A stretch of 48,913 nt of DNA, filler included, from Jimgerdemannia flammicorona (taxonomy: Eukaryota), in assembly GCA_003990765.1 (NCBI GenBank). It is 2 parts of 2 records of this genome, joined end to end, with 100 filler letters (N's around TTAATTAATTAA, not from the genome) between each part and the next. Parts side by side here need not be neighbours in the genome. Positions count along the whole stretch, not along the records: positions 24,512 to 48,913 come from RBNJ01000979.1; 1 more part is not named here. The stretch is one strand, 5' to 3'. Of this stretch, positions 255 to 40,024 are shown piece by piece; position 1 is the first letter of the stretch; each line of letters starts with the position of its first letter. Under the pieces are notes generated by a model. The model did not search any database. It saw only the letters and a program-made list of their open reading frames with translations, and had not been told where the DNA came from. The position numbers were made by a program, and so were the translations under genes.

Positions 255-279
255 ATGTTCCATTATTTCCTTTGCACAA

Positions 280-13291: not shown

Positions 13292-14498
13292 TGTGATAAG
13301 CCAAAAACGTATCACTTGAATTATAACTTAGCCAAATGATGTGAACAATTAGTAACTTAGCCAGATGATGTAAACAATTAGTAACTTAGCCAGATGATGT
13401 GAATATATAGCAATCATTACTAGACTATCAGATAAGGTATATCTGTATGAGATCAGCATACTTGTGCAGAATCTGTACACCTGTGCAGAACCCACACACC
13501 TGTGCAGAACTTGCATACTTACTACAAATAGCAATCTATAGTTAGCAATGAAGTAACTAGTAGTAACTATAACTGTATAAAATACCCCAGAGATAAGAGC
13601 AAATAAATCTCAGTTTTGAATTATAAAGCAAAAGACAAGTCTGCCTACTATACTTTGAGAGATATACCTGCCAATAGCCACTTGATCCAGAAAGGATTGC
13701 AATACTTAGGAGAAACACCTGCTCTATAGCCACTACTAGGAGATTGTGAGCTTTGCCCCTTTCCCACTCTAGTCCACTTTCTGATATAAAGAACAAGTCT
13801 ATTTTTGGTTCACTTGCCAGATAAGTCTGAAGAAATCTGCCAAGTTCAAGGAAGAACTTCACTGCCTTTTGAGTTATCTGCCACCATTTGAAGAGAAACC
13901 CATCTTCCCAGAAGAATCCATGCTATCTGAGTTATTTCCCAGAGAGCTGCTGGTTAAGAAGAATCTGTGACATCTGAGTTACCCAAACTATCCAAATTAT
14001 CTGTGACATCCGAGTTATTAGTTTGTTCCCAGTAAGCCTGATACAGAATAATCTGCCACCAGTATTATTTCCAGTAAGCTGCCAATTCAGAAAGGATCTG
14101 TGCCATCCTCTGTTCCCAGTAAACTCATGCCCAAATTGAGTTATTCACAGAAATTGCATAAAGAGAACTGCCAAATTGCCAAGATCGTTATACCAGAAAT
14201 TGCATACTTTTAGAGATCATCGTGCTACACAGAGATCATCACACAGAGATTGCTGTCACTCAAGAAGGAAAACCACTAAATTGCCAGTCATATATAAATT
14301 ACTGCTACACCCAGAGAACCTGTCCCAATAAGAAAGATGCTCACAGATATCCAGCTTTGACTATTATACCACTAAACACCAAGGTCCTCAGGAATTCTAG
14401 AACATTTTATTGCTTTTAACAAAGTAACTGAGGGCTCAAGCCAAACTACATCAACCCCCAATCTTGTAATTTGTCTCTATTGAGTCTGGTATATTATA
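13292..14498 (+). repeat. 5' LTR of Gypsy copy 1
   Basis: Direct repeat of 21690-22881. Starts TGTGATAAG and ends ATATTATA (mutated ATGTTACA). Confidence 0.92.
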
Positions 14499-14532
14499 TT
14501 TGAGAGCTCAACTGAGAAGATTTCAAATTGAC

Positions 14533-17500
14533 ATGACTTTTCAGCTCACAAAGAACCCACAGTCAAACTGGATACATTTGATACAACACCAATCTCTGCC
14601 ACCACAGGAGAACTAGTAATCACCAACATCTGGACAGGAAGAGAAGTAATCACCTTAAGACTTACCAACTATCCAGCATCAGAAGGATCCCAACCAGAAA
14701 TTAGTACAGCCCAAAATCCCCAATCAGATCAATCAGACAATACAGATAGTCCTGCTGGAGACTTTAGAGAACTTGCTCAAGAACTAGAAGATCTCATTGA
14801 ACTAGCTGGAAATCATGCAGCCAGATACTTCACAGCAGTTCCACTAATTTCACCCATAGAATGCTCATCTACAAGACCCAACTTAGAGAACTGGCCAGAG
14901 GAATTTTCCACCAAACAGTCAATGACCCACATTCAGAATTGGTAACAGAAATACAAGCAGCAGCCTCTTACCAGCTAGAGTATGCAGCCATGGTCCACTG
15001 GCTCATCAAAAAGTATGCAGGAAATGAAACCTGCTATAAGGCTCAAGAATCCATCATAGAGATGAAGATGAATCTTGGAGAATCACCCAGAGCCTTCTTT
15101 ACAAGAATCCAGAAGAGAATGCATGCAGCTGGGTTCAATGCCACCAACCAAGACATCATAGGACCAATGACCTTCATGAATGGAATCTCACCAAACATTG
15201 CTCAGTATGTCTGCACTCTAGGCATCAGAAGGCCTGAAGAGCAAGTAGATGTAGCTCAAGGATTCTTTGATGTTAAACAAGAAACTACCTGGAGTGACCA
15301 TGACAAGAAGGATGATAAAGAAGACATCCTGGTCAAAGTCCTACAAGGACTCCTTCAGGAATAAGAAAGATCTAAAGAAAGAAGACCAGCTAAGGAAGGA
15401 AAGAAGGACAGGAGTGAAATTCAAGACCTTAGCTTCAGGTTGGACCAACTGGTGGGACAGATTGAAAAACTCACTATATGCAAAAATCAGAGTTATCAAG
15501 AAAACAGAGGATATCCACCAAGGAACCAAGATTATCCACCAAAAGATAACAGGAACTATCAGCAAGAAGAAAGAAGATATCCTGTCCAAGACAGAACTCA
15601 AGTGTAATGCTCCCACTGTGGAAAATTTGGACACTATGCTACTGAATGTGATAACAAAAGAAGTGACTGAAAGGATTCAGAACCACCAAATTGAAGGAAT
15701 GAAACCCAGTACAAGAAGACTGAGGCCCATCCTGTTGAATACTTTGAAGAAGAGAGTAATAGTGAAGACTACAGTGATCTAGACTTGTACCCAACCAAAG
15801 TCAGTGCCCAGAGGACAGTTTACCCAGCAGAGAAAAGGAAGAGATCTGTTGGAAGGCCATCCAGGAATGTCAACAGAAGGATTATCCAGGAAGAAGATGA
15901 AGAATATAAAGAAGACCAGGTAGAAACACCTCTCTGATCCCCTTTACCTTTTGTCTTTAAGACAAATAAGTTACCACCAGAGGATGAAGAAATGGAATAA
16001 GAAGAATGAGAACCTACCACCCCAAAACCCAAGAAGAAGTACACATCCAAGACCATGCTCAGAGACATTTATAATGAAGCCTGGCAAAAGATTCAAGAGG
16101 CCAAGATGGAAGTCCCTCTCCTGCAGTTTCTATAACTAATACCAGCAGGAGTTTGAAACAAATCACTGAGGACTACTAGATCCAGCACTGGCTGAGTTCT
16201 AATCCCACAACAGGAGCCAGCCTCTATTCCTATCCAAGCTGCAGAAAGACATGTCAGCACTTATCTGTATAGAGATATTAGAGGACAAAAGGCAAAAATC
16301 CTCATAGACACAGAAGCAGCTATCTGTATTATTGCCAAACAATTCCTAGATACCCTTCAATGGCCCATTGATGGACCCTCCAACCTCAGCATCATAGTAG
16401 CAGATGGAGCCTGAACTCAGCCTCTTGGAGATGTGCAAAACATCACCATCTCTCTGAGACACATTCAGTTCTCCATTCCAAAGGCTGTTGTTACCAAAGT
16501 TATTACCTATAACATGATTCTTGGTACCAACTGGATGAAGGAAATGAATACAGTTGTTGATATCAGTCAACAAGTACTCAGAGGCAGGAAGTACAGAGTT
16601 AAGGTGACCAGCTATGAGTAATCAAAGAAGAAGAAGAAAGTCACTATCCAGGAAGAGTATACCAGCAGTGAAGAATCTACCACAGAAGAAGAAGAAGAAT
16701 CCAAAGATGGAAATGACCCTAGACTCAATCCCCAAATCAACCTAGTAGATGACAGGCCAGCAGACAATGTATGGGTCCAGAATACTATTCCTATTACCAT
16801 CAGAGCCATTGCAGGAGAAATCAAAGGATGCCCTACCTGTCTCAAAATATACAAGTGCCCTGAGCACTCCTCCAAGATCATTGGACAAGGAATTCGCCTG
16901 GCACAGCCTGCCCCAAATGCAGGAGAAAGAAGAAGAATACAGATATGCCCCAGAAATACCTACAACTGAAGCTGCAGAAGTACAAGCAATTTTGAGACAA
17001 GAATCATCATCTGAAGAAGAAGCTCTTGACCAAGAAGTTCCTGAGCAAGAAGTACCCAAAGAAGAAGAGGTCCCTGAACTCATTCCCTGAGATAACCCTC
17101 ACTGGACACCACCCAAAGACAATGACCCTTGGAATATAGAAAAAGGACCCAGGATAATCCCCATTATTCATAAGAAAGAAACTCACCAAGAAAGAGCTTT
17201 TTGGCTAGGAAGATATTCACACCAAATGATCTTCCACTCTCTCCAAGACTACTGCTATCAGTGCCATCTACTAGACCAGTAAGAAAGATAGAGACCCCAA
17301 AGACCAGAACTACTAATTACAGTTTCACAGTCAACTACCTTCCAAGAAATGACCACCAAATTACAAAGTCAATCTAGAGGACAAGACTTCTTCATCCAAA
17401 CAGAAAAATATCTCCTATCTACTCTTCCCCCAATATATGATGAAGATGAATACTGATTTCCAAGACAGCAAGAGATCAACAACCAGGACCATCATTTCTG

Positions 17501-20500
17501 AGCAATGGAATATTGCAATTATGGAAGACATCCAGACTGCTATGACTGCAGACATCAGAAGATTCACCTCAGTCATAATGTTACAATCCACATCTTGAAG
17601 AGAGGAGATAATGGAAGCCAGATCCAAAAAAGCCAGACCAAGAAGCCAGAAAGAAGGACTCTCAAGATCTATGATTTAGAAGAAGACATCCTAGCTCTCA
17701 TCAGATATACAGCCTACCAAGGATGGGCAGAGGATGCCACCAATTTCACAGAAGCCCTAGACCCTACAGGAAGAAGAGGAATCAACTATCTCCAAGACCT
17801 CTCTACTGGAGCCAGGTGGATCTCAGAGCCTAGAGGCATTCTGCTAGTAGAGCCTCAGCCCTGGATCAGTCTGAGCTCAGCAAGGATATTGCCCAGTATA
17901 TCCTGCTGCATCTCAAGGCCAAACCCCTGACCAAAGCCCACCCAGAAGATGTAGGATATGATTTTTACAGTCTGGAGGATGAATATATCAAGTCTGGAAA
18001 AACATTCATTGTCAAAACTGGACTAGCCATGCAGCCACCCCAAGGAGCTTACATCCAACTGACCTCAAGGTCTGGACTTGCTAGACAAGGAATAACTGTA
18101 GAAGGAGGAACCATTGACCCAGAACATATAGGTGAAATTAAGGTCATCCTATATAACAGTAGTACAGAATGGCACCAAATCATTATAGGACAGAAGATTG
18201 CTCAAACAGTCTTCATGAAGATCAAGACCCTGCAGTTACAAGAAGTTTCTGAACTGACCAAAGGAATAAGACAAGCCAAAGGATTTGGAAGCTCAGATAA
18301 GAAGGAAGTACACCTCCTTTAAGTCAACCATCTCAAGAGAAATATCCCTCAGCAAGTATACTACCAACCAGTCAGACTGTACAAGAATCTTATCCTGGAG
18401 TCTGGAGAGCAAACCACCTTTGAAATCTTTACACCACCTTACCCCAGAAATCTCTTCTTCGAACCCGATGATGATATCCCAAATCTAGACATAAAAGAAC
18501 ACACATTTCCTGACAAGATAAACCCAGTACACTCCTGAGCAACCAACCAAAGTTCAGAAACTATCATCTTACCAGAGGAACTGTCATAGGACATCTGGTG
18601 CCCCTTCTCAACTGAACTCATAAAGAAGTTTATGAACTAAACATATCAGAAAATAGTAAAAGGTCTCAGAAGAAAGGAAAGGCCCCTCTGTAACCTAAGA
18701 AATAGTAAAGTCTTCCACCAATATTAGAGAAGAACTGACACCCCAACAATAGCAACAACTAATAGAACTCTTTAACAAATTTCAAGATATCTTCACTACT
18801 GACTATAGCAATCTGCCATACAACCCATCATATCATTATAGCATAAATACCAGAAATATAACACCCATTCAGCAGAAATCCTATAGAATACCTCATCACC
18901 TAAAGATATTTGAAAAGGAGCACATTCAAGAACTCTTGGATAATAGAGTCATCTGACCTTCAACCAGCCCCTGGGCCAGCCCTATACTTATTGTACCAAA
19001 GAAAGGAGGATAGAGACTATGTGTGGATTACAGGAAACTCAATTCAGTCACCAAAAAGGATGCCTATCCTTTGCCCAGAATCAATGATCTCTTGGATCAG
19101 TTACAAGATACCAGATACTTCAGCAGTATGGATCTTTTCACAGGATTCCACAAGATCCCCATGGATCCCAAGGACATTCAAAAGACAGTCTTTCTTGTCC
19201 TAGGAATACCTCTGAATGTCCTTTGGACTTTGCAATACACCCCCAACCTTTCAGAGGATGATGAATTCAGTCCTTGCCCCCTTGATCTACCACTGCCTGA
19301 TTATATATATAGATAATTCCAACATCTATTCAGCAAATTTTGAAGAATACCTGCACTACCTTGAGGAATTCTTCAAGCTCACCCACAAGAACCACTTGAG
19401 ACTCAATGCAAAGAAATGCTACTTTGGAAAACAGAAACTTGAATTCCTCAGATTCATAGTTTCAAAAGAAGGAACCCATGCAGACCCAAAAAAGAAAACT
19501 GAGAAGATCAACAATTGGCCAGTACCCAAGACCCCCAAGGAAACACTATCATTCCTGATACTAGTATCCTACTACAGAAGGTTCATCAAGCAATTTGCCC
19601 AAATCACTGCCCCAATCTGAATCCTTCTCAAGAAAGGAGTCCCTTACAAATAGACAGAATTACAAGAGAAAGTCTTCAAAGAACTCAAGAACTGTATGAC
19701 TACAGCACCAATTCTTGTGTGCCCCAATCTATAGAAGCCATTTATCTTATACATAGATGCTTCCAAAGATAGTCTAGGAGCAGTTCTAGCTCAAGAAGGA
19801 TCTGACCAACAGTATCATGTGATAGCTTATACAAGCTGAGCTACCAATCAGCAGCAGATGAACTATGGTAGCATCAAACTGGAATGCCTTGCAGTCATAT
19901 GGATGGTTACCCTGTTTAAGCATTATCTTATTAGAAAAAGGTTCACCCTGATCACAGACCATGTAGCTCTCAAATAGCTATTCAACCACAAGGAACCTAC
20001 TGGAATCCTAGTCCACTGGATCCTTATCCTTCAGGATTACAAAATCACCATCATCTACAAAGCAGGAAAAGCTCACAACAATGTTGATGTACTTTCCCAC
20101 CAGTCCCAATGAATAAGCTCCTCAGACCATCAAGACACAAGAAGACCTCATTTGAAAAGAACATCAGAAAGCCCACTAGGGACAAGCAAACATAGAAGAA
20201 AAGTTGTAAAGAATATACCAACATTGGTCTAATCTCAGAACACAAGTCCAGGATATACTCAAGAGATGTGATATCTACCAGAAGTACCAAAAAAGGAAGA
20301 ACTATCAAGCACTACTGCAACCAATCACACCACCAGACAACATCTTTCAGAGTTGGAGAGTAGACATAATTGGACCCCTACCAGTTATATCAAGAAGAAA
20401 CAAGTATATTCTTATATTAATAGAATATTTGACCAAGTGGCCTAAGGCTTTCTCAATGGAAATCACAGATGTCTTAACCATTGTGGGCCTTCTCCATAGA

Positions 20501-21150
20501 CTCACACTCAGATATAGACCCATGGAAGAACTCATCTCTGACTGAGACACAGAATTCATCAACAACATAATCATAAGTTATGCCTGAATTTATAAGATCC
20601 ACCTCAAATGGACCACATAATACCACCCCCAGACCAATGATATAACAGAAAGAATGAACCAGACCATCAAGAAAGGACTTGCCTGAGTCAATCCTACCAA
20701 CTGGGATCTCTGCTTACCTGAGATCCTATGGGAAATTCAGAACACCCCTGCTGCCTCCACTGAACAAAAGCCATTTGAGATGATGTTTGCCAGAAATACC
20801 CGAACTGATGACCCTGAGAACCTCAGAAACCTTTTCAAAAAGGTAGAATAGTTATATAATCACGCCCAAGTTCAGATTATCAAAGCCCAAGAAAGACAAA
20901 AGTAGTACTATGACCAGAAGCAGATGAATTAGGAGATCAAGATTGGAGACCAAGTACTAGTTTGAAGAAGTATGATTGAAACAAACTTTGCCACCAAATT
21001 GGAGCCCAAATGGAAAGGACCTTATCTTGTTCATAACATCAGAGGAACCAATATCTATTTAAGAAGCATAGATGGATGAACCCTAAGGACACCAGTACAC
21101 ATCAATTACCTCAAGAAATATCTCCCTCTATACTATAAACTGGAGAAATG
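14533..21150 (+). pseudogene. gag-pol of Gypsy copy 1 (many stops and frameshifts)
   Basis: Zn knuckle ..HCGKFGHYATEC (~15610); protease KAKILIDT(E)AA (~16290); RT PWASP, CVDYRKLN, YPLPRINDLLD, FGLCNTPPTFQ, YIDN; RNase H YTDAS; integrase WRVDIIGPLP, YHPQTN, KWKGPY. Confidence 0.92.
17906..18298 (+). CDS. dUTPase domain within pol (copy 1)
   Basis: All five dUTPase motifs: DVGYDF, TSRSGLA, GGTIDPEHIGEIKV, GQKIAQ, RQAKGFGSSD. Confidence 0.93.
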
Positions 21151-21649
21151 ACAACCATCTCCAGACCCTCATCCTCAGTTTATTGCAATCACTACCAGTT
21201 CCCATACCTCAATTCCAAGAAGTCAATGGGAATATCCTCTAGAAGATTTAGATTTATCAAGCAAATCTTACTTTGGCCAAACACCTATTATAGGTCCACC
21301 AACTTTAGACTCTTATACAATTGGAGATCAGTTGTAAGACCTTTTAGTCCCAGAGCAGACCTATATCAGAAACACCACAGGATTATTAAGAAGGGATGCT
21401 ACTGCTGCAGACAGGCTCTATACTCTTTACAAATGAAACCCTGCAGCCATGATCCAAGCACAATTCTCCTGGAATGACATATGAGAAATGAGTCTAGTCA
21501 CCTATCTGAGCATCATTAATGCTGTTGAAATCCTGTTCCCCAAAGAAGAAAAAGAGTCTCTGGAATGGAGTGACTATAGTACATATAATGAAGATGATGG
21601 TACAGGAATTGATACAAAAGATGCTTATACATTTTGAGATGATAACTAA
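21135..21649 (+). pseudogene. Extra ORF (ORF3) after integrase, copy 1
   Basis: (ATA)NWRNDNHLQTLILSLLQSLPVPIPQF...IQAQFSWND...ILFPKEEKESLEWSDYS...GIDTKDAYTF; homologous to 24847-25359. Confidence 0.75.
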
Positions 21650-21689
21650 ATGATAGTCTGAGGACAGACCATCCTTTAGTTGGGGCTGA

Positions 21690-22881
21690 TTTGATAAGTC
21701 AAAAATATATCACTTAAATTATAACTTAGCCAGATAATACAAACAATTAGTAACTTAGCCAGATGACATGAACACATAGCAACCATTGCTGCAGAAAACT
21801 GTATAAATAGCCAGACTACCAGATAATATATATCTATGCAGGACCAGCACACTTGTACAAAACCTGCATACCTGTGCAGAACCCTCACATCTGTGTGGAA
21901 CTTGTACACTTACCATATATAGCAATCTATAGTTAGCAATGAAGTAACTAGAAGCAACCACAACTGTATAAAATACCTCAAAGATAAGAGTGAATAAACC
22001 TCAGTTCCAAAACATAAAGCAAAAGACAAGTCTGCCTACTATACTTTGAGAGATATGCCTGCCAAAAGCCACTTGATCTAGGAAGGATTGTAACACTTAG
22101 GAGAAATGCCTGCTCTACAGCCACTACTAGGAGATTGTGAGCTTTGTCTCTTTCCCACTCTGGTCCTCTGATACAAAGAATAAGTACATTTTTAGTTTGC
22201 TTGCCAGATAAGCCTGAAGAAATCTGCCAGTTCAAGGAAGAACTTCACTGCCTTTTGAGTTATCTGCCACCATTTGAAGAGAAACCTGTATTCCCAGAAG
22301 AATCCATGTTATCTGAGTTATTTCCCAGAGAGCTACCTGTTAAGAATCTGTGATATTCAAGTTACCCAAGCTATCCAAATTATCTGTGATATCTGAGTTA
22401 TTAGTTTGTTCCCAGTGAGCCCAATACAGAATAATCCACCACCAGTATTATTTCCAGTAAGCCACCAATTCAGGAAGGATCTGCACCATCCTCTATTCCT
22501 AGTAAACCCACACCCAAATCGAGTTATGTGCAGAAATTACATAAGGAGAACTACCAAATCACCAAGATTGTCATGCCAGTAATTGCATACTTTTGGAGAT
22601 TGTTGTTCTATATAGAGATCATCACACAGAGATTGCCATCACTCAAGAAGAAAAACTGCTAAATGGCCAGTCATATATAAATCACCACTATACTCAGAGA
22701 ACCTGTCCCAATAAGGAAGTTGCTCACAGATATCCAGCTTTGACTATTATACTACTAAACACCAAGGACCTCAGGAATTCTAGAATATTTTGTTGCTTTT
22801 AACAAAGTAACTCGGGGCTCAAGCCAAACTACATCAACCCCTAACATTATAATTTACCTCTATTGAGCCTGGCATATTACA
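21690..22881 (+). repeat. 3' LTR of Gypsy copy 1
   Basis: Follows the PPT-like AGTTGGGGCTGA and ends ATATTACA, then GTAG. Confidence 0.92.
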
Positions 22882-24411: not shown

Positions 24412-24511
24412 NNNNNNNNNNNNNNNNNNNNNNNNNNNNNNNNNNNNNNNNNNNNTTAATTAATTAANNNNNNNNNNNNNNNNNNNNNNNNNNNNNNNNN
24501 NNNNNNNNNNN
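24412..24511. other. Artificial contig spacer: 44 N + TTAATTAATTAA + 44 N
   Basis: Exactly 100 bp and symmetric; the 12-mer gives stops in all six frames. Confidence 0.95.
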
Positions 24512-26916
24512 CAGAACTACTGACCATGAGAATCTCGGAGACCTCCTCAAGAAGGCAGAACAGTTACAAAATCAAGCCCAAGGACAGATTATCAAAGCCC
24601 AGGAAAGACAAAAGAAGTACTATAACCAAAAACAGAAGGATCAGAAGATCAAGATTGGAGATCAAGTCCTAGTTTGGAGAAGCATGATTGAGACAAACTT
24701 TGCCACCAAACTGGAACTGAAATAGGAAGGATCTTATCTTGTATATAACATCAGAGGAACCAGTATCTATTTAAGAAATATGGATGGACGAACTCTGAGA
24801 ACAGCAGTACACATCAATTGCCTTAAGATATACTTCTTCTCACACCATGAATCAGAGAATTGACAACTGCCTCCAAACTCTTGTTCTCAGTTCCCTCCAA
24901 GCCCTACCAGTTCCCCTGCCTCAGTTCCGGGAACCCAATGGAACCTATCTTCAGAGAATCTGAGTTTATCAAGAGAACCTCACTTTGGCTGAGAGGCTAC
25001 TCCAGGTCCACTAGCTGCAGGTATATTATGCAATTGGAGAACAATTGCAGAATCTTCCTCTCCCAGACCTAGCCTATGTCCGAAACACCACTGGCCTGAA
25101 CAGAAGGAACACTACTGCTGTAGACAGACTATATACAATATATAAACAAAATCCTTCTGCCTTAATCCAGGCCCAGTTTTTCCTGAATGACCTCCAAAGG
25201 ATGACACTGCCTACCTACCTCAGCATTATTTACCAAGTGGTGACCCTATTTCCTGAGGAAGAAGAAGAGCCCCTAGAATGGAGTGACTATAGCTCAGATG
25301 ATGATGATGGAATAGGTATAGATGCAGAAGCTGCTTATACCTATTGGGATGATGACTGAAGAATAGTCTGGGACAGACTACCCTTCAGTGAGGGCTAATG
25401 TAACAGACCAAAACATACCACCTGAATTAAAACTTAGCCAGATGACATGAACAATTAGCATACTTACTCAGCATGATGTGACTTCCAGTGTATCATAGTT
25501 ACTCATGCCTGCCACACTTATAATTAGCCAAGACACCAGATCAGGATTGTTTACCTGTATCCTGAGGACACACTCATATCCTGTGGACACACTCATGTCC
25601 TGTGGACACACTCATGTCCTGTGGACACACTCATGTCCTGTGGACACACCTGTACCCAGAGGACACACCCAAACATTACTGAAGATAGCAAATCTATAGT
25701 TAGCCACATAGTAACCAGATATCAACCAACTTGTATAAATTACCCCAGAGATGAGAGTGAATAAAACCTCAGTCCAAAAAGTCTGAAATTGAAGCAACAG
25801 ACAAGTCTGCCTACTACAATTCGAGAGGAACTCTACAGCTACTGTTAGGAGATTGTGAGCTTATTTCCCCTTTCCACTCCAGTCTACTTTCCGATACAAG
25901 CTGATTTTGCCGCCTAAGTTCAAGGAGAACTTTGCCACCTTTTGAAGAGTAATCTGCCACTTAAGGAATAAGCCGCTACATTTTTTGGTTCACTTGCCAG
26001 ATAAGCCTGAAGAATCCCAGTTTGCCACCAAGTTCAAGGAAGAACTTTGCTGCCATTTTCCAGTTATCCACCATATCCCCAGAAGAGCCCACCTTTCTTG
26101 CCACAAGCCAGTTTCTGACGCAACTTCACAGTGATCCATTTGCGCAAATAAAGCCAGTCTTTGATGCAACTTTGCCAAGAGACTCTTTCCAAGCCACCAA
26201 CCCATTTTCCAGTTAGAGCCCACTGATTCAGGAAGAACCTACATTATCCACTATTTTTGAGTTATTTACCATATTCCCAGTTGAAGCCAAATCTGTGCCA
26301 TCCAAGTTAATTCTCAGTTAAGCCACCACTTTCAAGAAGCCCGCCAAATCTGCATCATCCACCACTTTCAAGTTATCCACATCCCCAGAAGAGCCACCTG
26401 AGTTGTTCATTATTCCCAGTGAGCCCAGTACTGAAGAAACCATGCTATACATATATTCCCAGTGAGCCAAATTGAATTATTTGTCAGATTATCAAAATGT
26501 CCTGCATAAGGAAACCACTGCACTATATAGAGATCGTCGCACTACACAAGATTGTCACACAGAAATCGCATAAGGAGAACTGCTAAATTACCAGGCCATC
26601 ATGCATAAGGAGATCATCATGCTACACAGAAATCACCTGTTACTCAAGAAGGAAGCCACTCACGCTATACACAAATTGTGCCATTCCCAGTAGACCCAAG
26701 AAGGAAAAGATATACAAACTGCCACTATACCCAGAGAACTGTCCCAATAAGGAAATCACTCATAGATATCCAGCTTTGACTATTATACTGCTAAACACCA
26801 AGGATCTCAGGAATCTTAGAACATTTTGTTGCTTTTTAACAAAGTAACTGGGGCTCAAGCCAAACTATATCAACCCCCAACCTTGTAATTTGCCTCCATT
26901 GAGCTGGCATGTTACA
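24512..26916 (+). mobile_element. 3' part of another Gypsy copy: integrase C-terminus, ORF3, hairpin/PPT, 3' LTR (25399-26916)
   Basis: IIKAQERQKKYYNQ...KIGDQVLVWRS; LTR TGTAACA...TGTTACA homologous to the other LTRs. Confidence 0.92.
24847..25359 (+). pseudogene. ORF3, 170-codon hypothetical protein (best-preserved copy; two internal stops, no frameshift)
   Basis: MNQRIDNCLQTLVLSSLQALPVPLPQF...DRLYTIYKQNPSALIQAQFFLNDLQRM...LFPEEEEEPLEWSD...GIDAEAAYTYWDDD*. The ATG lies just inside the pol end. Confidence 0.8.
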
Positions 26917-29252: not shown

Positions 29253-31119
29253 AGTGGTCGGTGTGTTGAAGATAGCTCAATGTGTATACATATATACATA
29301 ACCCAAAATGTATGATCGCAGGTCTATAAATCTGATTCTCAACGATTAAAGAACAGGGAAATGTGTTGTATGAAGAAGAGGATACTGTAAAAGTCGGCCA
29401 AACGAACGAAATGCTTACGGATAATTCGAAAAGTTGCGGATAATTCAGCCAAGCTCATTCATTGAACAACTGGATGAAAATGATAATACTAGCAGAGAAC
29501 AGTCTTTAGACACCCTATGTATGTTATACGATACCCACCAACCACAATTCACTACAAATCCCTCTCCTCCCTTGCATGCATCCCTCCATAAAAATCGCGC
29601 CAGACTCACTGTGTGGACTATATCCCCCACAGCCATTGCTTACCAGACACACTTCCCACATCCCTAGGACAATATTTACATGTGTTTACAATATTCTCCA
29701 TTTTCCCATCTCTACCTACCATTCACCATATCACCATCCTCAACTTAGAATTTTAAACCAAATTAGATAAGCTTATAAAGAAGTTATTATTATTACTAGA
29801 GTTTTCTCAAATGAGCTCAAGGATATATGTATATACCATTGAGAACAATCTAATCTATAATTAAGACAAAGTCTATCTACTAAATAATATAGAACTTCAC
29901 TGTAAGATACATATTATAAGAACATTATGACTCTCCATTTACTAGTTACTTATAAATTGATAAATCTATTAAGAATCTCTAATAATACTACTACTAATCT
30001 AATATGATTAAGAAATAAAGAACTGATTAGTTGTGATCTCTATTAGTATAATAAGTATTGAAATTCTTATTATTATATATCTTAATAATGTAGCTTAAAT
30101 ATATAATTCTTTATAACTATATTATTTTTGAGCTATCACTTGATATGTAAAAATGTAAGCAATTAATAAACAATACTACTACTTTTCTCTTCTACTTCAT
30201 ATTTTCAACATATTTATAATAAAGATTATAAGCTCTACTTAGTCGTAAAAAAAATATCTTTCTAAGACTATATGCTACTTTATACTAAAATGTTGCAAAT
30301 GATAAATCAAGGAGCCAGTGTAAGTATACTAAATACAGGAGACACAGATACCTCTGAAATAGATATAATAATAATTACAATGTCTATTGTTAGTATAAAT
30401 ATAGCCAAGAGATGATTCTTAATCTTTAATAATAAGAACTATATAATTTGAGTAGTTTATATATATAATCTTCTAGAAGAATATAACTTAACAGAATATC
30501 TCTTAGATGGTATATAGGAATGTCTTTTTAGCAGTAATTTTTTTATTAAACTCAATTCATCTAATTATAATTTTTTTTTTTAAATAAAATTTTATTCAAA
30601 GGTAAAAAAAAGTATAAAATATCAATAGTTAAAATATTTTTAAAAAGTTATTATAATTTTCAGACTTATGAATTTTCAAAAAGATTTGCAGCCAAATTTA
30701 TTTATATTATCATCTAAGAGATATAAAACTACTGGTACAGATTTAAGATTATAATATTACAAATGATTACTGAGCATTATATAAGATTATATTTATATTA
30801 TCAAATTTATAAATAAAGTATATAATTTACATAACAACTGTTTACAAAGTAAGAAAGACTTTATATAATTATTATATATAAATATTTATATTAAATTAGT
30901 TCTATCTCAAATCTCAGCTATTTAATCTATGAATGAAGTCTAAGAAGAATATTTGTAAATGTGATAATTATATTGACAATCTGGTAAATTAAGTAAATTT
31001 TCTAAGTATGATAGTAGAGTATATAAATAATAAAGACAAGATTCTGGTTTTTATAAGAAGTCTCTCTGAGATATATAATATTATAATAATAGCTATGTAC
31101 AAAAATAGACTATATCTAC

Positions 31120-32469
31120 TATAATGTGCCAGCTCAATGGAGGCAAATTATAAGGTTGGGGGTTGATGTAGTTTGGCTTGAGCCCCCAGTTACTTTGTCA
31201 AAAAGCAATAAAATGTTCTAAGATTTCTGAGGTCCTTGGTGTTTAGTGGTATAATAGTCAAGCTAGATATCTGCAAGTGGTTTCCTTATTGGGATGGTTC
31301 TCTGGGTGTAGTGGCGATTCATGTCTTTCCTTCTTGGGTCAATCTGGGAATAGCACAATTTGTGTATAGTGTGAGTGGTTTCTTTCTTGAGTAGTGGGTG
31401 ATTTCTGTGTAGCATGACAATCTTGTGCGTGATGGTCTGACAATTTAGCAGTTCTTCTTATGCAATTTCTGTGTGATAATCTCTGTTTAGTATAGGCTTC
31501 CTTATGTGGGACATTCTGATAATTTGGTAGATAACTTGATTTGGCTCACTGGGAATAGTATAGTGTGGATTCTTCAAATCAGACTCACTGGGAACAAACT
31601 GATAACTCAGATGTCGCAGGTTTTCTGGAAATACAGATGACTTGAAAATAGTGGATAACACAGATTCTCCTGAATTGGTAGACTTCTTGAAAAAAGGATG
31701 ACTTCAACTGAGAATAACTTGGATGGCATGAGTTCTTCTGGATTGGGCTCTTCTGGGAATATGAACAACTGGCAGCATTCTTTGGGAAAGGGTCTCTTGG
31801 CAAAGTTATATCAAAGACTGGCTTCATTTGCATGGAGTTACATCAATAGACTGGCTATACTGTGAAGTTGTGTCAACAGACTGGCTTGTGGCAAGAATAG
31901 AGCTCTCTGGGAATATGGTGAACAACTTGGAAATAGTAGCAAAGTTCTTCCTTGAACTTGGATAGCAAATCAGCTTTGTATTGGAAAGTGGACTGGAGTG
32001 GAAGAGAAGAGGACCAAGCTCACAACTTCTTGATAGTGGCTCATTGGCAGGCCTATCTCCTAAGTGTTGCAATCCTTCTTGGATCAAGTGGCTTTTGGCA
32101 GGCATTTCTCCTAAGTGTACCAGACAATTGACTTTTGCTTTGGTTTATATTCAACTTTCAGACTGAGGTTTATTCACTCTTGTCTCTGGAGTAATTTATA
32201 CAAGTTGGTTGCTATCTAGTTACTATGTGGCTAACTATAGATTTGCTATCTATGGTATGTTTGGGCAGATGGTCACTGTCTGGTAGACAGCCACTGTCCA
32301 AGGAACAGCTACTGTTCACATTATTCCCTTCTTTGGCTATCTGGTTATTTATATATTTTTCCACAGCAATGATTGCTGGTTACTAAGCTATATATTCACA
32401 TCATCTTGACTAATTGTTCACATAATCTGATTGAGATATAATTCAGATGGTATGTCTTGGTTTGTCACA
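31120..32469 (-). repeat. 3' LTR of Gypsy copy 2
   Basis: Direct repeat of 40025-41373, bordered by the PPT complement TCAGCCCCTAC. Confidence 0.92.
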
Positions 32470-32508
32470 TCAGCCCCTACTGAAGAGTAGTCTGTCTCAG
32501 ACTATTCT

Positions 32509-33015
32509 TCAGTCATCATCCCAATAAGCATAAGCATTCTCTACATCTATGCCTGTTCTATCATCTTCATTGTCTGTACTGAGATTACTCCATTCTAGTT
32601 CTGGATCTTCTTCTTGTCCTTTGGAAAACAGAATGTCTACTTGTTGGAGAATACTCTGAAAAGTAGTCTCATTCATCTGATGAATATCATTGAGGTAGAA
32701 ATGAGATTGTACTAGGGCTCCAATATTTTGTTTGTACAGGGTGTAGATTTGTTTGGCAGTTCTTACTTCTCAGCAGGTTATCCCAGCTAGTCCTTCAATA
32801 TATGACTGTTCTTCAAGTAATTGTCTGATATTGTAGAAGGCTTATAGATGGTGGATCTGTAACAACCTTTGGGCAATAGCAAGGTTCTCTTGATGCTTCT
32901 GGATCAATTGTATTGGGGTTCCTTCAAGTTGGCAGAACTGGGGCAAGGGAACTGGTAGAGCTTAGAAAGAGCTAAGGATGAGAGTCTGAAGGTACTGTTC
33001 AATCCTTTGGCTCAT
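32509..33015 (-). pseudogene. ORF3 of copy 2 (168 codons; three stops explainable by C>T; no frameshift)
   Basis: MSQRIEQYLQTLILSSF*ALPVPLPQF...TAKQIYTLYKQNIGALVQSHFYLND...QQVDILFSK...ELEWS...GIDVENAYAYWDDD*. Confidence 0.8.
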
Positions 33016-36000
33016 GGTATAGAGGAATATATAGTTTGAGGCAATTGATGTGTACCAGTGTTCTCAGGGTTCATCCATCTATGCTTCTTAAATAGATGCT
33101 GGTCCCTCTGATATTGTGTACAAGATAAGGTTCTTCTTATTTTGATTCCAGTTTGGCAGCAAACTTTGTCTCAATCATGCTTCTCCAAACTAGGACTTGA
33201 TCTCTAATCTTGATCTCCTGATCCTTCTGTTTTTGGTTATAGTACTTCTTTTGTCTTTCCTGAGCTTTGATAATCTGTCCTTGGGCTTGATTATATAACT
33301 GTTCTGCCTTTTTGAAGAGGTCTCCAAGATTCTCATGATCAGCAGTTCTGGTTCTCTTAACAAACATCATTTCAAATGGCTTTTGTTTGGTGGAGGCAGC
33401 AGGGGTGTTCCAAATTTCCCATAGGATCTCAGGTAAGCAGAGGTCCCAATTAGTAAGATTGACTCAGGCAAGTCCTTTCTTGATGGTCTGGTTCATTCTT
33501 TCTATCATACCATTGGTCTGGGGGTGGTATGATGTGGTCTTTTTGAGGTGGATCTTGTAAATTTGGGCATAACTTGTGATTATGTTATTGATGAATTCTG
33601 TGCCTCAATCAGAGATGAGTTCTTCTGGAGGTCCATATCTGAGTGTGAGTCCATGGAGAAGGCCTACAATGGTTAAGGCATCTGCGATTTCCATTGGGAA
33701 AGCCTTGGGCCACTTGGTCAGATGTTCTACAAATACAAGAATGTATTTGTTTCTTCCTGGGGTAACTGGTAGAGGCCCAATTACATCTACTCTCCATCTC
33801 TGAAAGATGTGAGTGGGTGGGGGAATTGGTTGCAAGGGGGCTTGATAGTTCTTCTTTTCTTGGTACTTCTAGCAAGTGTCACATTTCTGGATAATGTCTT
33901 GGACTTGAGTTCTGAGGTGGGGCCAGTGTTGATACAGTTTTTGAATCTTGTCTTCTGTACTTGTCTGTCCTTGATAGGCTTTCTGATATTCTTATCAGAT
34001 GAGATCTTCTTATTCCTTGATGGTCTGAGGAGCTTCCTTTAGGGTGTAGTTCCTCAGGACACCCTTCTTCTAGTTCATTGGAGCTGGTGGGAAAGTACAT
34101 CAATATTGTTGTGAGCTTTCCCTGCTTTGTGGATGATAGTGATTTTGTAATCCTGAAGGATAAGGATAAGGATCTAGCGGACTAGGATTCTAGTGGGTTT
34201 CTTACAGTTGAATAACTATTTGAGGGCTGCATGGTCTGTGATCAGGGTGAACCTTTTTCTGATGAGATAATGTTTGAACAGGGTGACCACCCATATGACT
34301 GCAAGGCATTCCAGTTTGGTGCTACCATAGTTCATCTGCTGCTGATTGGTGGCTCTGCTTGCATAAGCTATTACATGGTGCTATTGATTGTATCTTTCTT
34401 AGGCTAGAACTGATCCGAGGCCATCTTTGGAAGTATCTGTATATAAGATGAATGGTTTCTGTAGATTGGGGCACACAAGGATTGGTGCTGTAGTCATGTG
34501 GTTTTTGAGTGCTTTGAAGGCTTTTCCTTATAATTCTGTCCATTTGAATGGCACTTCTTTCTTGAGAAGGATCTGGATTGGGGCAGTGATTTGAGCAAAG
34601 TTCTTGATAAACCTTCTGTAGTAGGATACTAGCATCAGAAATAATAGTATCTCTATTGGGGTTTTGGATACTGACCAATTGTTGATCTTCTCAGTTTTCT
34701 TTGGGTCTGTATAGATTCTTTCTATTGAAACTATGAATCCAAGGAATTCAAGTTTCTGTTTTCCAAAGTAGCATTTCTTTGCATTCAGTCTCAAGTGGTT
34801 CTTGCAGGTGAGTTTGAAGAATTCCTTTAGGTGGTACAGGTGTTCTTCGAAATTTGCTGAGTAGATGTTGGAATCATCCATGTATACAATCAGGCAATGG
34901 TGGATCAAGGGGGCATAGACTGAATTCATCATCCTCTGGAAGGTGGGGGGTGCATTGCAAAGTCCAAAGAGCATTCGGAGGTACTCAAACAGTTTTCCTA
35001 GAGCAAGGAAGGCTGTCTTTTGAATGTCTTTGGGGTCCATGGGGATCTTATGGAATCCTGCGAAGAGGTCCATACTGCTGAAGTATCTGGCATCTTATAA
35101 CTGATCCAAAAGGTCATCGATTCTGGACAGAGGATAGGCATTCTTTTCTGTAACTGAATTGAGTTTCCTGTAATCTATACAAAGTCTCCATCCTCCTTTC
35201 TTTGGTACAATAAGTATAGGGCTAGCCCAAGGGCTGATAGAGGGTCAGATGACTCCATTGTCTAAGAGTTCTTGGATGTGCTCTTTTTTGAATGTCTTCA
35301 AGTGATGGGGTATTCTATAGGATTTCTGCCGGATGGCTGTAGTATTTTCTGTATTTATGCTGGGGTGGTATAATGGATTGTAGGGCAGGTTGCCATAATT
35401 GGTGGTGAAGATATCTTGATATTTGTTGAGAAGTTCTGCTAGTTGTTGTTGTTGTTGAGGTATCAATTCTCCTCCAATGTTGATGGAAGGCTTGACTGTC
35501 TCTTGGGTCGCAGAGGGGCCTTTCCTTTCTTCTGGGACCTTTTGCTGTTTCCCAATAGGTTTAGTTCATAAACTTCCCTATGAGTTCGGTTGAGAAAAGG
35601 CACCATATGTCCTATGATGTCCTATGATGGTTCCTTTTGGCAAGATGATGGTTTCCCAACTTTGGTTGGTTGCTCAGGAGTGTACTGGATTCATCTTGTC
35701 AGGGAATGTATGCCTCTCTATGTCTAGGTGTGGGATATCTTCCTTGGGCTCAAAGAAAAGGTTTCTGGGGTTGGGTGGTACAAAGATTTCAAATGTGGTT
35801 TGTTCTCCAGGTTCCAGGATGAGGTTCTGGTGTAGTCTGACTGGTTGGCAGTACACTTGCTGGGGAATATTCCTCTTAAGGTGGTTGACTTGAAGGAGAT
35901 GTACCTCCTTCCTGTCTGAACTTCCAAATCCCTTAGCTTGTCTTGTTCCTTCAGTTAATTCAGAGACTTCCTGTAGCTGTGGAGTCTTGACCTTCATGAA

Positions 36001-39000
36001 GACTACTTGGGCAATCTTCTGTCCTCTAATGATTTGATGCCATTCTGCACTGCTGTTATGTAGGATGACCTTGATTTTGCCTATATATCCAGGGTCAATA
36101 GTTCCTCCTTCTACAGTTATCTCTTGTCTGGCAAGTCTGGACCTTGAGGTCAGTTGAATATAAGCTCCTTAGGGTAGCTACATGGCTAATCCGGTTCTGA
36201 TCATGAAGGTTTTTCCAGGCTTGATAGATTCATCCTCCAGGCTGTGAAGATCATATCCTACATCCTCTGGGTAGACTTTGGTCAAGGGTTTGGCCTTGGG
36301 GTGCAGCAGGACATACTGGGCAATATCTTTACTGAGTCCAGGCTTTTCTAAGGCTGAAGCTCCACTAGCAGAGAGCCTCTAAGCTCTATGGTTGAGGTGT
36401 AGCCATCTGGCTCCAGTAGAGGGGTCTTGGAGGTATTTGATTCCCCTCCTTCCTATAGGGTCAAGGGCTTCCATGAAGTTGGTGGCATCTTCTGCCCATC
36501 CTTGGCAGGTTGCATGTCTGATGAGAGCTAGGATGTCTTCTCCCAGATCATAGATCTTGAGGATTCTTTTTCCAGGCTTCTTGGTCTGGCTTTTTCGAAT
36601 CTGGCTTTTTTGGATCTGACTTCAGTTATCTCCTTTCTTCAAAGTGTGCACTACAACATCATGACTGAGGTGAATCTTCTGGTGTCTGCAGTCTCAGCAG
36701 TCAGGGTATTTCCCATGGTTGCAATATCCCATTGCCTGAAAATGATGTTCCTGGCTATTTGTCTCTTGTTGTCTTGGGAATTGGTATCTATCTTGATTAT
36801 AGGTTGGGGGAAGAGTGGACAAGGGATATATTTCTATTCAGGTGAAGAAGCCTTATCCCCTAAATCGACTTTGTAACCTTATGGTGACTTCTTGAAAGGT
36901 GATAGACTATGCAAGAGTAGTTGGGGGTTCTGGTCTCTGAGGTCTCTGTCTTTCTTATTGGTCCAACAGATGACACTGATAGCAGTAGTCTTGGGGAGAG
37001 TGGAAGACCATTTGGTGCAGACATCTTTCTAGCCAAAAAGCTTTCTCTTAGTGAGTTTCTTTCTTGGGAATAATGGCGATTATACTGGGTCCTTCTTCTG
37101 TATTCCAAGGATTATTGTCTTCAGGTGGTGTCTAGCAAGGGTCATTCCAGAGAATGAGTTCGGGGACCTCTTCTTCATCAGGTGCTTCTTGTTCAGGAAC
37201 TTCTTGGTCAGAAGTTTCCTCTTCCCCAGATGATTCTTGTCCCCAGATTGCTTACACTTCTGCAGCTTCAGTTGCAGGTGTTTCTGGAATATGTCTGCAT
37301 TTCTTCTTCTTCCTCCTGCACTCTGGGCAGGCTGTGCCAGGCGATTTCCTTGTTCCTATGATCTTGGAGGAGTGCTCAGGACACTTGTATCTCTTGAGAC
37401 ATATAGGGCATCCTTTGGCTTCTCCTGCAATAGCTCCTATGGTAATAGGGATAGTGTTCTTGGCCCACACATTATCTTCTGGTCGGTCATCCACCAGATT
37501 GATTTGGGGATTGAGTCTGGGATCATTTCCATCTTCAGATTCTTCCTCTTCTTCTGTGGTGGATTCTTCACTACTGGCATACTCTTTCTGAATAGTGACC
37601 TTCTTCTTCTTCAATTGCTCATAACTGGTCACCTTAACTCTGTACTTCTTGCCTCAGTAGTCAAACTTGAGTACTTGTTGGCTAATATTGACAACTGCAT
37701 TTATTTCCTTCATCCAGTTGGTATCAAGAATTATGTCATAGGTGACAGCTTCAGTGACAACAGCTTTGGGAATAGAGAACTGAATGTGTCCAAGAGAGAT
37801 GGTGATATTTCATACTTCTTCAAGGGGTTGAGTTCAGGCTCCATCTGCTACTATGATGCTGAGGTTGGATGGTCCATCAATGGGCCATTGAATGGTGTAC
37901 AGAAACTGTTTGGTGATGACACAGACAGCTGCCCCTGTGTCTATGAGAATCTTCGCCTTTTGTCCTCCAATATCTCCATGTAGGTAGGTGCTGACATGTC
38001 TTTCAGCTGCATGAACAGGGATGGGAACTGGTTCTTGCTGTGGGATTGGGACTTGGCCAGTGCTAGAACTGGTGGTTCTCAGTAATTTGTTTCGAACTCC
38101 AGCTGGTGTCAGTTGCAATAGCTGCAGCAGAGAGACTTCCATTTTGGCTTCTTGAATCTTCTGCCAGGCTTCATTATAAATGTCTCTAGGCATGGTCTTC
38201 AGAGTGTACTTCTTCTTAGGCTTTGGAGCAGCAGGTTCCTGTTCTTTTTGTTCCATTTCTTCATCTTCTGGTGGCAACTCATTTGTCTTAGGGACAAAAG
38301 GTGAGGGGGTTCAGAGAGGTGTTTCTACTTGTTCCTCCTCATGTTCTTCATCCTCTTCTTCGATAATTCTTCTACTGATGTTCCTGGATGGTCTTCCTAC
38401 AGGTCTCTTTCTTTTCTCTGCTGGATAGACTGTTTTCCAGGTTATAACCTTAGTGGGGTATAAGTCTAGGTCACTGTAGTCTACACTGTTGCTTGCTTCT
38501 TCGAAATCTTCAACAGGATGGGCTTCAGTCTTCTTGTACTGAGTGTCATTCCTTTGGTTTGGTGGTTCTGAGTCCCTTGGGTCACTTCTTTTATTATTAC
38601 ATTCAGTAGCATAGTGTCTGAATTATTCACAGTGGAAGCATTGAACCTGGGCTCTGTCTTGGACAGAGTACCTTCTTTCTTCATACTGGTAATTCCTGTT
38701 ATCTCTTGGTGGATAACCTTGGCTCCTCTGTGGTGGATATCCTCTATTGCCTTGGTAGCCCCGATTTTCACATGTAGTGAGTTTTTCAATCTGTCCAACC
38801 AATTGGTCCAGCTTAGAGCTAAGGTCTTGGATTTCACTTCTGTCCTTCTTTTCTTCCTTGGCTGGCCTTCTTTCCTCAGATCTTTCTTGTCCTTGAAGGA
38901 GTCCTTGCAGGGCTTTGACCAGGATATCTTCTTTATCTTCTTTTTTGTCATGATCACTTCAGGTAGTTCCTTGTCTGACATCAAAGAATCCTTGGGCTAT

Positions 39001-39990
39001 ATTTACTTGCACTGGGCAATATTTGGGGGAATCCCATTCATGAAGGTCATTGGGCCTATGATGTCCTGGTTGGTGTCATTGAACCCAGCAGAATACATTC
39101 TCTTCTGGATTCTTGTGAAGAAGGCTCTAGATGATTCTCCAAGATTCATCTTTATTCCCATAATGGATTCCTGAGCCTTGTGGCAGATTTCATTTCCTGC
39201 ATACTTTTCAATGAGCCAGTGGACCATGGCCTCATATTCCAGCTCATTAGACATTGCTGCTTATATCTGTCTTGCTAGTTCTGAATCTCAGTTGTTTGCT
39301 GTTCAATGGAAAATTCCTCTGGCTGGTTCTCTGAGCTGGGCTTTGTAGATGGTGATTTTTCTTTCATCTGAGAGATTTCTTAAGGCAGTAATTCCTTCAA
39401 TTCCATCAAGGAATTCTCTGGGATCTTCCTCTGGGTATCCTGCTAAAATTGGCAATGAGGTGGCCATCTCGTCATCACTTTCTTCTGATTCTGGTTCAAG
39501 TTCAGATTCTGATTCTGATTCACTTTCTGAACTGTCACTAGAGATAGGAGTGCTTGGGTATCTTGAGGATAGTGTTCTAGTTCTTGGACAGAGTGAAATA
39601 GGCCTAGGTATTCTTATAAGAGCTACTTCTGGTTCTGCAAGGAGTTGTGGTAGGGGTTCTATTGGTGAGATTAGTGGGACTGGTGTGCAGTGTCTGGCTG
39701 TAAAGTATTGGGTTTGTGTGATATGATTTTCTGGTTCTTGTACAAGTTCTCCAAAATCTCTAGCAGGGCTGTCTGTATTGTCTGGTTGATCTGGTTGGGG
39801 ATTTCAGGCTATACTGCCTTCTGGTACTGGTTGGGATCCTTCTGATGCTGGGTAATTGGCAAGTATTGAAGTAATTACTTCTCTTCCTATCCAGATACTG
39901 GTGATAACTGGTTCTCCTGTAGTAGCAGAGGTTGGTGTTATATCAAATATATCCAGCTTGACTGTGGGTTCTTGTGAGCTGAAAAGTCAT
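33000..39990 (-). pseudogene. gag-pol of Gypsy copy 2
   Basis: KAKILIDTGAAVCVI (protease); LFGLCNAPPTFQ and VYMDD (RT); FQRWRVDVIGPLP...EELISD (integrase). Confidence 0.92.
35913..36306 (-). pseudogene. dUTPase domain within pol (copy 2, two stops)
   Basis: DVGYDLHS, TSRSRLA, GGTIDPGYIGKIKV, GQKIAQ, RQAKGFGSSD. Confidence 0.9.
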
Positions 39991-40004
39991 GTTGATTTGA
40001 AATC

Positions 40005-40022
40005 TTTCCAGTTGAGCCCCCA
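40005..40022 (-). promoter_or_regulatory. Primer-binding site, probably tRNA-Pro
   Basis: TGGGGGCTCAACTGG directly after the 5' LTR. Undoing CpG decay gives TGGGGGCTCGACCGG, close to the tRNA-Pro PBS TGGGGGCTCGTCCGGG. Copy 1 has TGAGAGCTCAACTGAG at ~14501. Confidence 0.7.
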
Positions 40023-40024
40023 AA

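Follow-up and report, generated by a model that had tools for sequence, protein, structure and literature searches.

A third open reading frame under purifying selection, downstream of integrase in a chromodomain-less Ty3/Gypsy lineage of Jimgerdemannia flammicorona

Genes acquired downstream of pol have repeatedly brought retrotransposons new abilities: an Env turned some of them into viruses, and regulators and counter-defence genes gave rise to the "complex" retroviruses. To our knowledge, outside animals and plants almost no such extra gene has a known job. A stretch of 48,913 nucleotides from the Jimgerdemannia flammicorona assembly GCA_003990765.1 (hereafter the window, meaning the whole stretch analysed) raises the question of what is encoded between the integrase (IN) and the 3' long terminal repeat (LTR) of a lineage of Ty3/Gypsy elements, where an open reading frame (ORF) of about 170 codons recurs. 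A first-pass annotation, made from the sequence alone, had taken this frame, here called ORF3, for a selected, fast-evolving accessory protein with an acidic tail and without a recognised family. We show here that ORF3 is a genuine accessory gene, maintained by purifying selection, and that in sequence comparison different elements carry deeply diverged versions of it that have been swapped by recombination. We further propose how it might be translated and what its product might do.

A third ORF under purifying selection

A tblastn search of the window with its two best-preserved ORF3 copies recovers exactly four copies (cross-match E-values 7e-16 to 2e-48), the same four that had been placed earlier between the integrase and the polypurine tract. 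The matches to copies C and B span 24847-25356 (plus strand) and 33015-32512 (minus strand). Copy C (24847..25359, plus strand) comprises 170 codons and a stop, with in-frame stops at codons 39 and 56. Copy B (32509..33015, minus strand), which lies in the element that we call B and represents a second sequence type, comprises 168 codons and a stop, and has three in-frame stops and a five-codon deletion. Copy A (21135..21649, plus strand) shares the sequence type of copy C, and is dead, with ATA in place of a start codon, a frameshift near 21305-21314 that divides its tblastn matches into 21135-21305 and 21314-21646 (plus strand), and many stops. The fourth copy is a degraded fragment covering residues ~56-156 (3345..3608, minus strand). 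The proteins of copies C and B are 47% identical (E 2e-53), and the conserved motifs quoted in the first-pass annotation are indeed present in the translations. Both ends of the frame also lie where they had been said to lie. The ATG of copy C at 24847 is 17 nt inside the pol frame, whose TGA stop is at 24861-24863, and its own stop (25357-25359) falls in the 5' arm of a stem-loop (25355..25389, plus strand) that is conserved in copies A, B and C. The predicted folding energy of this stem-loop is -18.9 kcal/mol in copy C (z -3.1), -22.2 in B and -16.5 in A, with z-scores of -3.1 to -4.5 overall. It stands directly 5' of a short G-rich polypurine tract (25390..25398, plus strand, inferred from its position relative to the LTR start), which is followed by the LTR.

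In place of a repaired consensus we used natural intact homologues. A word-indexed search of a clustered protein collection yielded five ORF3 clusters, and a profile search of the same collection yielded 19, all from short contigs of ENA or JGI assemblies; the related public sequence known at present comes only from soil metagenome assemblies. Complete relatives include P0003 (171 aa), P0004 (172 aa) and P0017 (169 aa), P0018 is a 183-residue form extended upstream, and the cluster members P0009 (171 aa) and P0011 (170 aa) supply two further intact ORFs. For the selection test we compared five DNA copies, two from the window and three from metagenome loci (L001-L003), in 10 pairs by the Nei-Gojobori method. 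The ratio of nonsynonymous to synonymous differences per site (pN/pS) is 0.28-0.44 in the ORF3 frame in all ten pairs; when the alignment is read in either of the other two frames, it rises to 0.61-2.76. The alignment was built on the ORF3-frame protein and is slightly biased to that frame, with few gaps. With the Jukes-Cantor correction the substitution ratio (dN/dS) is 0.10-0.23, and none of 1000 bootstraps reached 1. The constraint extends over the whole length, as pN/pS is below 1 in all six segments of ORF3, the tail included (0.19-0.52), and it is similar to that on the IN C-terminus (0.25-0.39). These ratios, together with the natural intact ORFs of 169-172 aa, bear out the earlier view that the gene is selected.

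A possible source of error is the mutational decay of these repeats. Differences between the two LTRs of an element are mostly transitions, with 124 transitions to 17 transversions in element A and 126 to 12 in element B (ratios 7.3 and 10.5). They concentrate at CpA (rate 0.34-0.42) and at the remaining CpG (0.67), and are rare at CpT (0.05). In most of the repeat DNA, CpG has an observed/expected ratio of 0.00-0.10, against 1.04 at 28001-30000. Evidently, to judge from these sequence patterns, the host deaminates cytosines in repeats, by methylation or by a process like repeat-induced point mutation. The first-pass annotation had named a dN/dS near 1 after masking of deamination sites as grounds for rejecting selection; with transversions only, the pN/pS of ORF3 is 0.26-0.65, and since the ratios stay low, deamination is not the source of the selection signal. 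The further statement that all premature stops are of the C>T type is plausible and can be seen in part: copies C and B have five such stops between them, of which three are simple changes of CAA or CAG to TAA or TAG, and the two TGA would need a CGA ancestor or two changes.

Module exchange and translation

Between elements A and B, ORF3 is 0.57-0.65 identical and gag-pol 0.74-0.91. At four-fold degenerate sites pooled over the 10 pairs, 147 of 243 differ in ORF3 and 76 of 275 in the IN C-terminus; per pair, the difference is 0.53-0.67 in ORF3 and 0.05-0.40 in the IN C-terminus, and is higher in ORF3 in all ten. The earlier observation that ORF3 is more diverged than the neighbouring integrase is therefore upheld at silent sites as well. 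"Fast-evolving" holds at the amino-acid level, where dN is 0.18-0.38 for ORF3 and 0.02-0.17 for the IN C-terminus. It fails if positive selection is meant, for no segment of ORF3 has a pN/pS above 1, although its silent sites are saturated. As the silent sites are still more diverged and every segment is below 1, the pattern points to old recombining lineages rather than to positive selection. The pair with the widest gap is L001 and L002, which differ at 0.05 of the four-fold sites of IN (pS 0.05) and at 0.60 of those of ORF3, with ORF3 identity declining along the gene from 0.83 through 0.77 to 0.60. We considered a uniformly higher mutation rate in ORF3 as the sole cause and rejected it: the ratio of ORF3 to IN silent divergence is 1.6-3 fold in nine of the 10 pairs and 12-fold between L001 and L002, a spread that a uniform rate fails to produce and that recombinational exchange of old ORF3 modules can explain. 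Co-evolution of ORF3 with the LTR was likewise rejected, as divergence among the LTRs of the three elements is much the same in every comparison (0.65-0.73) and bears no relation to ORF3 type; the LTR of C is slightly closer to that of B, despite C sharing its ORF3 type with A.

How ORF3 is translated is best approached from the junction upstream of it. In every copy examined, gag through RNase H (RH) forms one frame and IN lies in the -1 frame. Given that IN is under purifying selection, it must be translated somehow. The RH/IN junction reads CAATGA, with the stop overlapping the start (ATGA), in four of five copies (A ~20109-20112, plus strand; B ~34078-34075, minus strand; L003 2791-2794; L002 ~726-729), and L001 has ATAA. 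In the three metagenome loci a hairpin of 9-10 bp, with a predicted energy of -17 to -20 kcal/mol (z -3.7 to -4.3), ends ~11 nt upstream of the junction. No slippery heptamer was seen by eye in L003 2700-2794, where no formal scan was made. Stop-restart translation is known to us from fungal RNA viruses and not from LTR retrotransposons. The RH/IN junction looks like the stop-restart pattern of the victorivirus type, which would be unusual for an LTR retrotransposon. According to the available part of a study of such viruses, AUGA stop-restart with upstream structure is established in the victoriviruses of filamentous fungi (PMC6631646).

The IN/ORF3 junction is more variable. An ATGA overlap is present in L001 and L002, that is, in two of six copies, L003 has a deletion there, and the three copies of the window have their ATG 14 nt ahead of the pol stop. 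ORF3 is in the -1 frame relative to IN in L001-L003 and in the +1 frame in the window's three copies, by way of a 1-nt deletion before the ATG. This difference implies that no single fixed slippage mechanism serves both, and makes a frameshift fusion unlikely. The ORF3 ATG is at the same place in four of the six DNA copies, all four of which have A at -3, and eleven database proteins begin there with M[NT]QR[IV]D, so that initiation at this AUG is the simplest account. Hence, ORF3 probably starts at its own AUG, which overlaps the pol stop and in one sub-lineage does so in the form AUGA, and we posit that its expression would rely on stop-restart or on a subgenomic RNA rather than on a frameshift fusion with Pol.

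Architecture and possible roles of the ORF3 protein

Profile and fold searches place the ORF3 protein in no described family, as the first-pass annotation had anticipated. Pfam returned only sub-threshold noise for the two window copies and for eight members, and a profile compared with PDB sequences gave a best E of 0.22. A HMMER profile search of 1.84 billion representative proteins recovered five true matches, all of the ORF3 family itself; a leucine-rich-repeat protein (P0016) from the HMMER search was rejected as spurious. With predicted structures, the best structural TM in the ESM Atlas was 0.37, with feature matches to unnamed clusters only, and Foldseek, a check proposed in the first-pass annotation, gave a best E of 0.5 against PDB. 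VIA-align over 48,161 chains gave a best Z of 3.8 and none at Z>=5, and the viral proteins of BFVD gave a best E of 0.17. These fold searches rest on a moderately reliable model and exclude no family; the model has no recognisable known fold, and we do not claim a new one. In the open-access literature on third ORFs of fungal Gypsy elements we found general reports of extra ORFs and no description of this protein. ORF3 thus defines a protein family new to the databases searched, with no relative in them outside this lineage.

Two AlphaFold2 runs, one for each ORF3 sequence type and with an intact member of that type as lead sequence, predict a helical domain of ~135 aa followed by a disordered tail of ~35 aa. 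The run for the first type has a mean per-residue confidence (pLDDT) of 80.8 and a predicted TM-score (pTM) of 0.69, and that for the second type 63.9 and 0.53. Both place one helix at ~2-18 and a long one at ~34-68, with a proline-rich loop (LPxPLPxF) between them, followed by four to five shorter helices up to ~135. The net charge of the domain ranges from +3 to -3, which makes it near neutral or, in the second sequence type, acidic (pI 5.9-6.6). The acidic tail noted before is indeed a strongly charged one (net -12 to -18), with two tryptophans and one to three tyrosines. Both tryptophans are invariant and lie in the motifs [LIVA]-x-W-[SC]-x and the C-terminal A-[YN]-x-[YH]-W-[DN]-[DN]-[DN], and every member reaching the end terminates in G-x-G-[IVM]-D-A-x-x-A-[YN]-x-[YH]-W-[DN]-[DN]-[DN]. 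No membrane segment was found in four intact members, where the maximal 19-residue Kyte-Doolittle mean is 0.94-1.46 (no dedicated signal-peptide predictor was run), in line with the earlier reading that ORF3 has no long hydrophobic segment and is not a classical Env. There is also no match to an env family in Pfam and no significant row in BFVD or PDB, on a model of moderate quality. Neither a GDSL/SGNH nor a DEDD exonuclease match was obtained in Pfam at E<=10 with eight members, and the ORF3 model is all-helical. The evidence therefore supports an accessory, non-structural protein that is neither membrane-bound nor, by any recognisable motif, enzymatic.

The VCA-type Arp2/3 activators of the WASP family are marked by an acidic C-terminus in which a tryptophan stands close to the last residue, preceded by a WH2 (V) motif and a connector helix. 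ORF3 has such an end, ...YW[DN][DN][DN]-COOH, though no match to WH2 or a related Pfam domain was found, and this absence weakens an Arp2/3-type reading of the sequence.

The anti-silencing, targeting or chaperone roles put forward in the first-pass annotation are conjectures. We propose that ORF3 acts as an adaptor. Its helical domain would hold a component of the element, and its acidic and aromatic tail would bind a host partner with a basic surface, for example chromatin and its histones, or the transcription or transport machinery. Such an adaptor would serve a nuclear step, e.g. integration-site choice or activation, that chromodomain-bearing relatives handle differently; a chromatin or histone target would fit the missing chromodomain of this lineage. 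Taken as a whole, an account that combines a selected soluble protein, its own AUG, recombining lineages and an adaptor role is the best that we can offer, and we regard it as about evenly poised between right and wrong, the adaptor role being its inferred part. Several observations weigh against it. The helical domain is not basic (+3 to -3), which disfavours direct binding of nucleic acids, and beyond its charge nothing points to what it holds. A confident model was obtained in only one of five per AlphaFold2 run, so the tertiary packing is uncertain and the statement that there is no known fold is a weak one. On the side of expression, no conserved RNA structure is predicted upstream of the ORF3 start (consensus -3.6 kcal/mol with no covarying pairs; per-copy z +0.67 to -2.31, with pseudoknots outside the prediction), and a third cistron reached by reinitiation would yield very little protein. 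Given this lack of upstream structure, a subgenomic RNA is an equally open alternative to stop-restart. Among public runs none from RNA was found to contain the element, the runs that do being four soil-metagenome DNA runs with small shares.

Other explanations share parts of this evidence. ORF3 could be a functionless relic, or a frame that stays open by chance or through constraint on RNA or DNA signals acting in cis that overlap it. In favour of this, none of the four copies in the window is intact, and the 3' end of the frame overlaps the conserved hairpin beside the polypurine tract. We consider this very improbable: that hairpin spans the last few codons only, while the constraint is specific to one frame and runs along the whole length, and several independent ORFs of 169-172 codons are intact. 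It is just as improbable, in our estimate, that ORF3 is a C-terminal extension of integrase produced by programmed frameshifting. The frame is open for ~20-40 codons upstream into IN in L003, P0006, P0018 and P0019, and the canonical ATG is lacking in L003 and P0019; nevertheless, conservation of the ORF3 protein begins exactly at the ATG, the stretch upstream is conserved in the IN frame, and the frame relation differs between the metagenome loci and the window copies, as described above. To this may be added, as weak evidence, that no fused ORF3 proteins of 301-2000 aa were found in the database search.

The remaining alternatives accept ORF3 as a gene and assign it other roles. If it were a transactivator of its own LTR, comparable to the regulators of complex retroviruses, the helical domain would read the promoter and the tail would activate. 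An acidic, aromatic-rich composition is typical of acidic activation domains, and the tail, with its W, Y, L and I set amid D and E at the C-terminus, agrees with it. The weak rows of the fold searches also include helix-turn-helix DNA binders (Mu transposase I-beta, Mor, SopB and a sigma-4 complex), but their Z of 2.6-2.8 is far under the tool's noise level for helical models, the domain is near neutral, or acidic in the second type, and the failure of the LTRs to track ORF3 type gives no sign of co-evolution between protein and promoter. On balance we hold a transactivator to be rather unlikely. Slightly harder to credit is a counter-defence factor, e.g. a silencing suppressor whose tryptophans would serve as an Argonaute hook, with frequency-dependent selection keeping old alleles. 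The raised silent-site divergence over ORF3 only, with homogenised flanks and module exchange, is what long-lived host-parasite alleles would look like, the host does attack its repeats, as the depletion of CpG relative to the neighbouring gene and the excess of LTR transitions indicate, and two invariant tryptophans lie in a disordered acidic context. Against this, there are only these two, one between E/V and S/C, the other between Y/H and D/N, and neither beside a glycine, so that the GW/WG signature is absent; no segment has a pN/pS above 1; and the same pattern could arise without an arms race if recombination kept gag-pol homogeneous and ORF3, being less constrained, drifted apart. A bolder synthesis, which we think unlikely though the least so of these departures from our proposal, would have three coupled cistrons (gag-PR-dUTPase-RT-RH, AUGA-IN and AUGA-ORF3, where PR is the protease and RT the reverse transcriptase), with ORF3 as a new accessory class at the host interface, in chromatin tethering or counter-defence, and host pressure keeping ancient shuffled alleles.

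Carrier elements and known parallels

The window of 48.9 kb is an array of degraded LTR retrotransposons with AT-rich DNA around them. Element boundaries were taken from a direct-repeat search and alignments, the ends of A and B being approximate, and the broken frames of A and B were translated with X at stops before the Pfam scan. Element A (13395..22880, plus strand) has LTRs at ~13395-14497 and ~21690-22880 that are 87% alike, and the gene order gag (with a CCHC knuckle)-PR-dUTPase (17924-18295)-RT-RH, then IN in another frame, then ORF3. The full-length element B (31105..41330, minus strand) has LTRs at ~31105-32469 and ~40012-41330 that are 90% alike, and the same gene order, with the dUTPase at 35917-36285 (minus strand). 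The partial element C resumes after an N gap (24414-24502) on the plus strand, with the C-terminus of its integrase at 24503..24863, a GPY/F-type module without chromodomain, and ends in its 3' LTR at 25399..26916 (TGTAAC...GTTACA). In A, B and the related metagenome contig L003, Pfam identifies gag-asp_proteas, RVT_1, RT_RNaseH, Integrase_H2C2 and rve, in this order; the intact integrase ORF of L003 gives the same domain picture as A and B. The CCHC knuckle of gag is visible in the translations, and a dUTPase (PF00692, E about 2e-25) lies between protease and RT in A and B. Pfam gave no Chromo match, either to three frames of elements A and B (E<=0.001) or to the intact L003 integrase (E<=0.01), and IN terminates ~40 residues past GPY. 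The hallmarks typical of LTR elements are present, with direct LTRs bounded by TG...CA ends (TGTAAC...GTTACA) and the G-rich tract before the 3' LTR. The carrier is hence a chromodomain-less Ty3/Gypsy (Metaviridae) lineage with a dUTPase.

Some further features of these elements may be recorded. Between protease and dUTPase, ~450 residues of the polyprotein of A and B have no domain assignment. Candidate primer-binding sites follow the 5' LTRs of A (14498-14520, plus strand; TTTGAGAGCTCAACTGAG) and of B (~40011-39990, minus strand; TTTGGGGGCTCAACTGG). In the U3 part of the copy C LTR (25555-25650) a unit of ~20 nt is repeated in tandem, by eye in about four to five copies. Between the elements lies a glutathione S-transferase gene (28353-29249, plus strand; Pfam N-terminal domain E 2e-18, C-terminal domain E 1e-9), whose domains occupy two open frames, probably split by a short intron; with its normal CpG content it is apparently an intact host gene. 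The two ends of the window (1-1500 and 47490-48913) share a GC-rich repeat (~48%) with near-identical stretches and long G/R/P-rich open frames, for which no Pfam match was found in the three frames tested; they may represent another, younger repeat family. Two soil-metagenome runs, X1 and X2, were compared with element B at a likeness of at least 85%. Over 32400-40000, X1 contains 2472 contig pieces at least 85% like the gag-pol of element B, 295 of them at >=99%, so that this family of elements is abundant in the run, as may be its host or a near relative of the host. Where the X1 pieces depart from the window, the changes are chiefly A>G and T>C, so that deamination has gone further in the window copy. 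Over the ORF3 core (32654-32907) X1 gives no cover and X2 hardly any, which proves nothing and is not used as evidence here; nor is one X2 contig that joins 32597 to 32984 with unknown letters between.

ORF3 offers a clean case for study, being short, soluble and selected, with natural intact alleles that can be expressed directly and a sharply defined C-terminal motif. Old recombining ORF3 lineages inside otherwise homogenised elements are a testable sign of a host interface, and the ATGA junctions hint at stop-restart translation in an LTR element. Should one of these readings prove right, a new accessory function or a new expression strategy would be added to the Metaviridae; if neither does, ORF3 is one more lineage-specific ORF.

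Complex retroviruses carry small accessory and regulatory genes 3' of pol that are lineage-specific, more diverged than pol and prone to recombination. ORF3 resembles these in being a small non-structural ORF near the 3' LTR that is lineage-specific, more diverged than pol and prone to recombination, but it has no match in viral sequences or folds (the best E in BFVD being the 0.17 given above). With the Env of errantiviruses it shares its position between pol and the 3' LTR; it differs from that protein in its small size of about 170 aa and in its lack of a hydrophobic anchor, a fusion peptide and any match to an env family. The likeness to victoriviruses and hypoviruses, as far as these are described in the available part of PMC6631646, lies in the ATGA at IN/ORF3 (L001, L002) and at RH/IN (four of five copies, with the hairpin ~11 nt upstream). 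Those are two-cistron RNA viruses, whereas here the ORF3 junction has no upstream structure and the window ATG lies 14 nt before the stop.

Among retrotransposons, a comparison can be drawn with certain fungal Gypsy elements. Some families of these, according to PMC2864245, likewise have a dUTPase between PR and RT, and in some fungal elements an "additional ORF with unknown function" is drawn; these elements bear a chromodomain that the present lineage is without. In the text of that paper that was consulted, the extra ORFs are neither described nor given as sequence. Tmt1 of Tuber is said, in works that cite it, to be grouped with such fungal elements. The closest architectural parallel that we found, on published description rather than by sequence, is with the bdelloid rotifer elements Juno, Vesta and TelKA, which, in the available portion of PMC5408684, are Ty3/Gypsy-like, have their dUTPase between PR and RT, and possess an IN that ends in a GPY/F module without chromodomain, and whose extra post-pol ORFs are family-specific and modularly exchanged. 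The rotifer elements differ, as described there, in their LTRs of 159-551 bp against about 1.1-1.5 kb here, and in the nature of their ORF3 proteins, which are paramyxovirus-type fusion proteins, small transmembrane proteins, GDSL esterases and DEDDy exonucleases (PMC5408684). Many Ty3/Gypsy lineages are known to carry additional ORFs behind pol, and the ORF3 of Jimgerdemannia joins these as a lineage-specific retroelement accessory gene.

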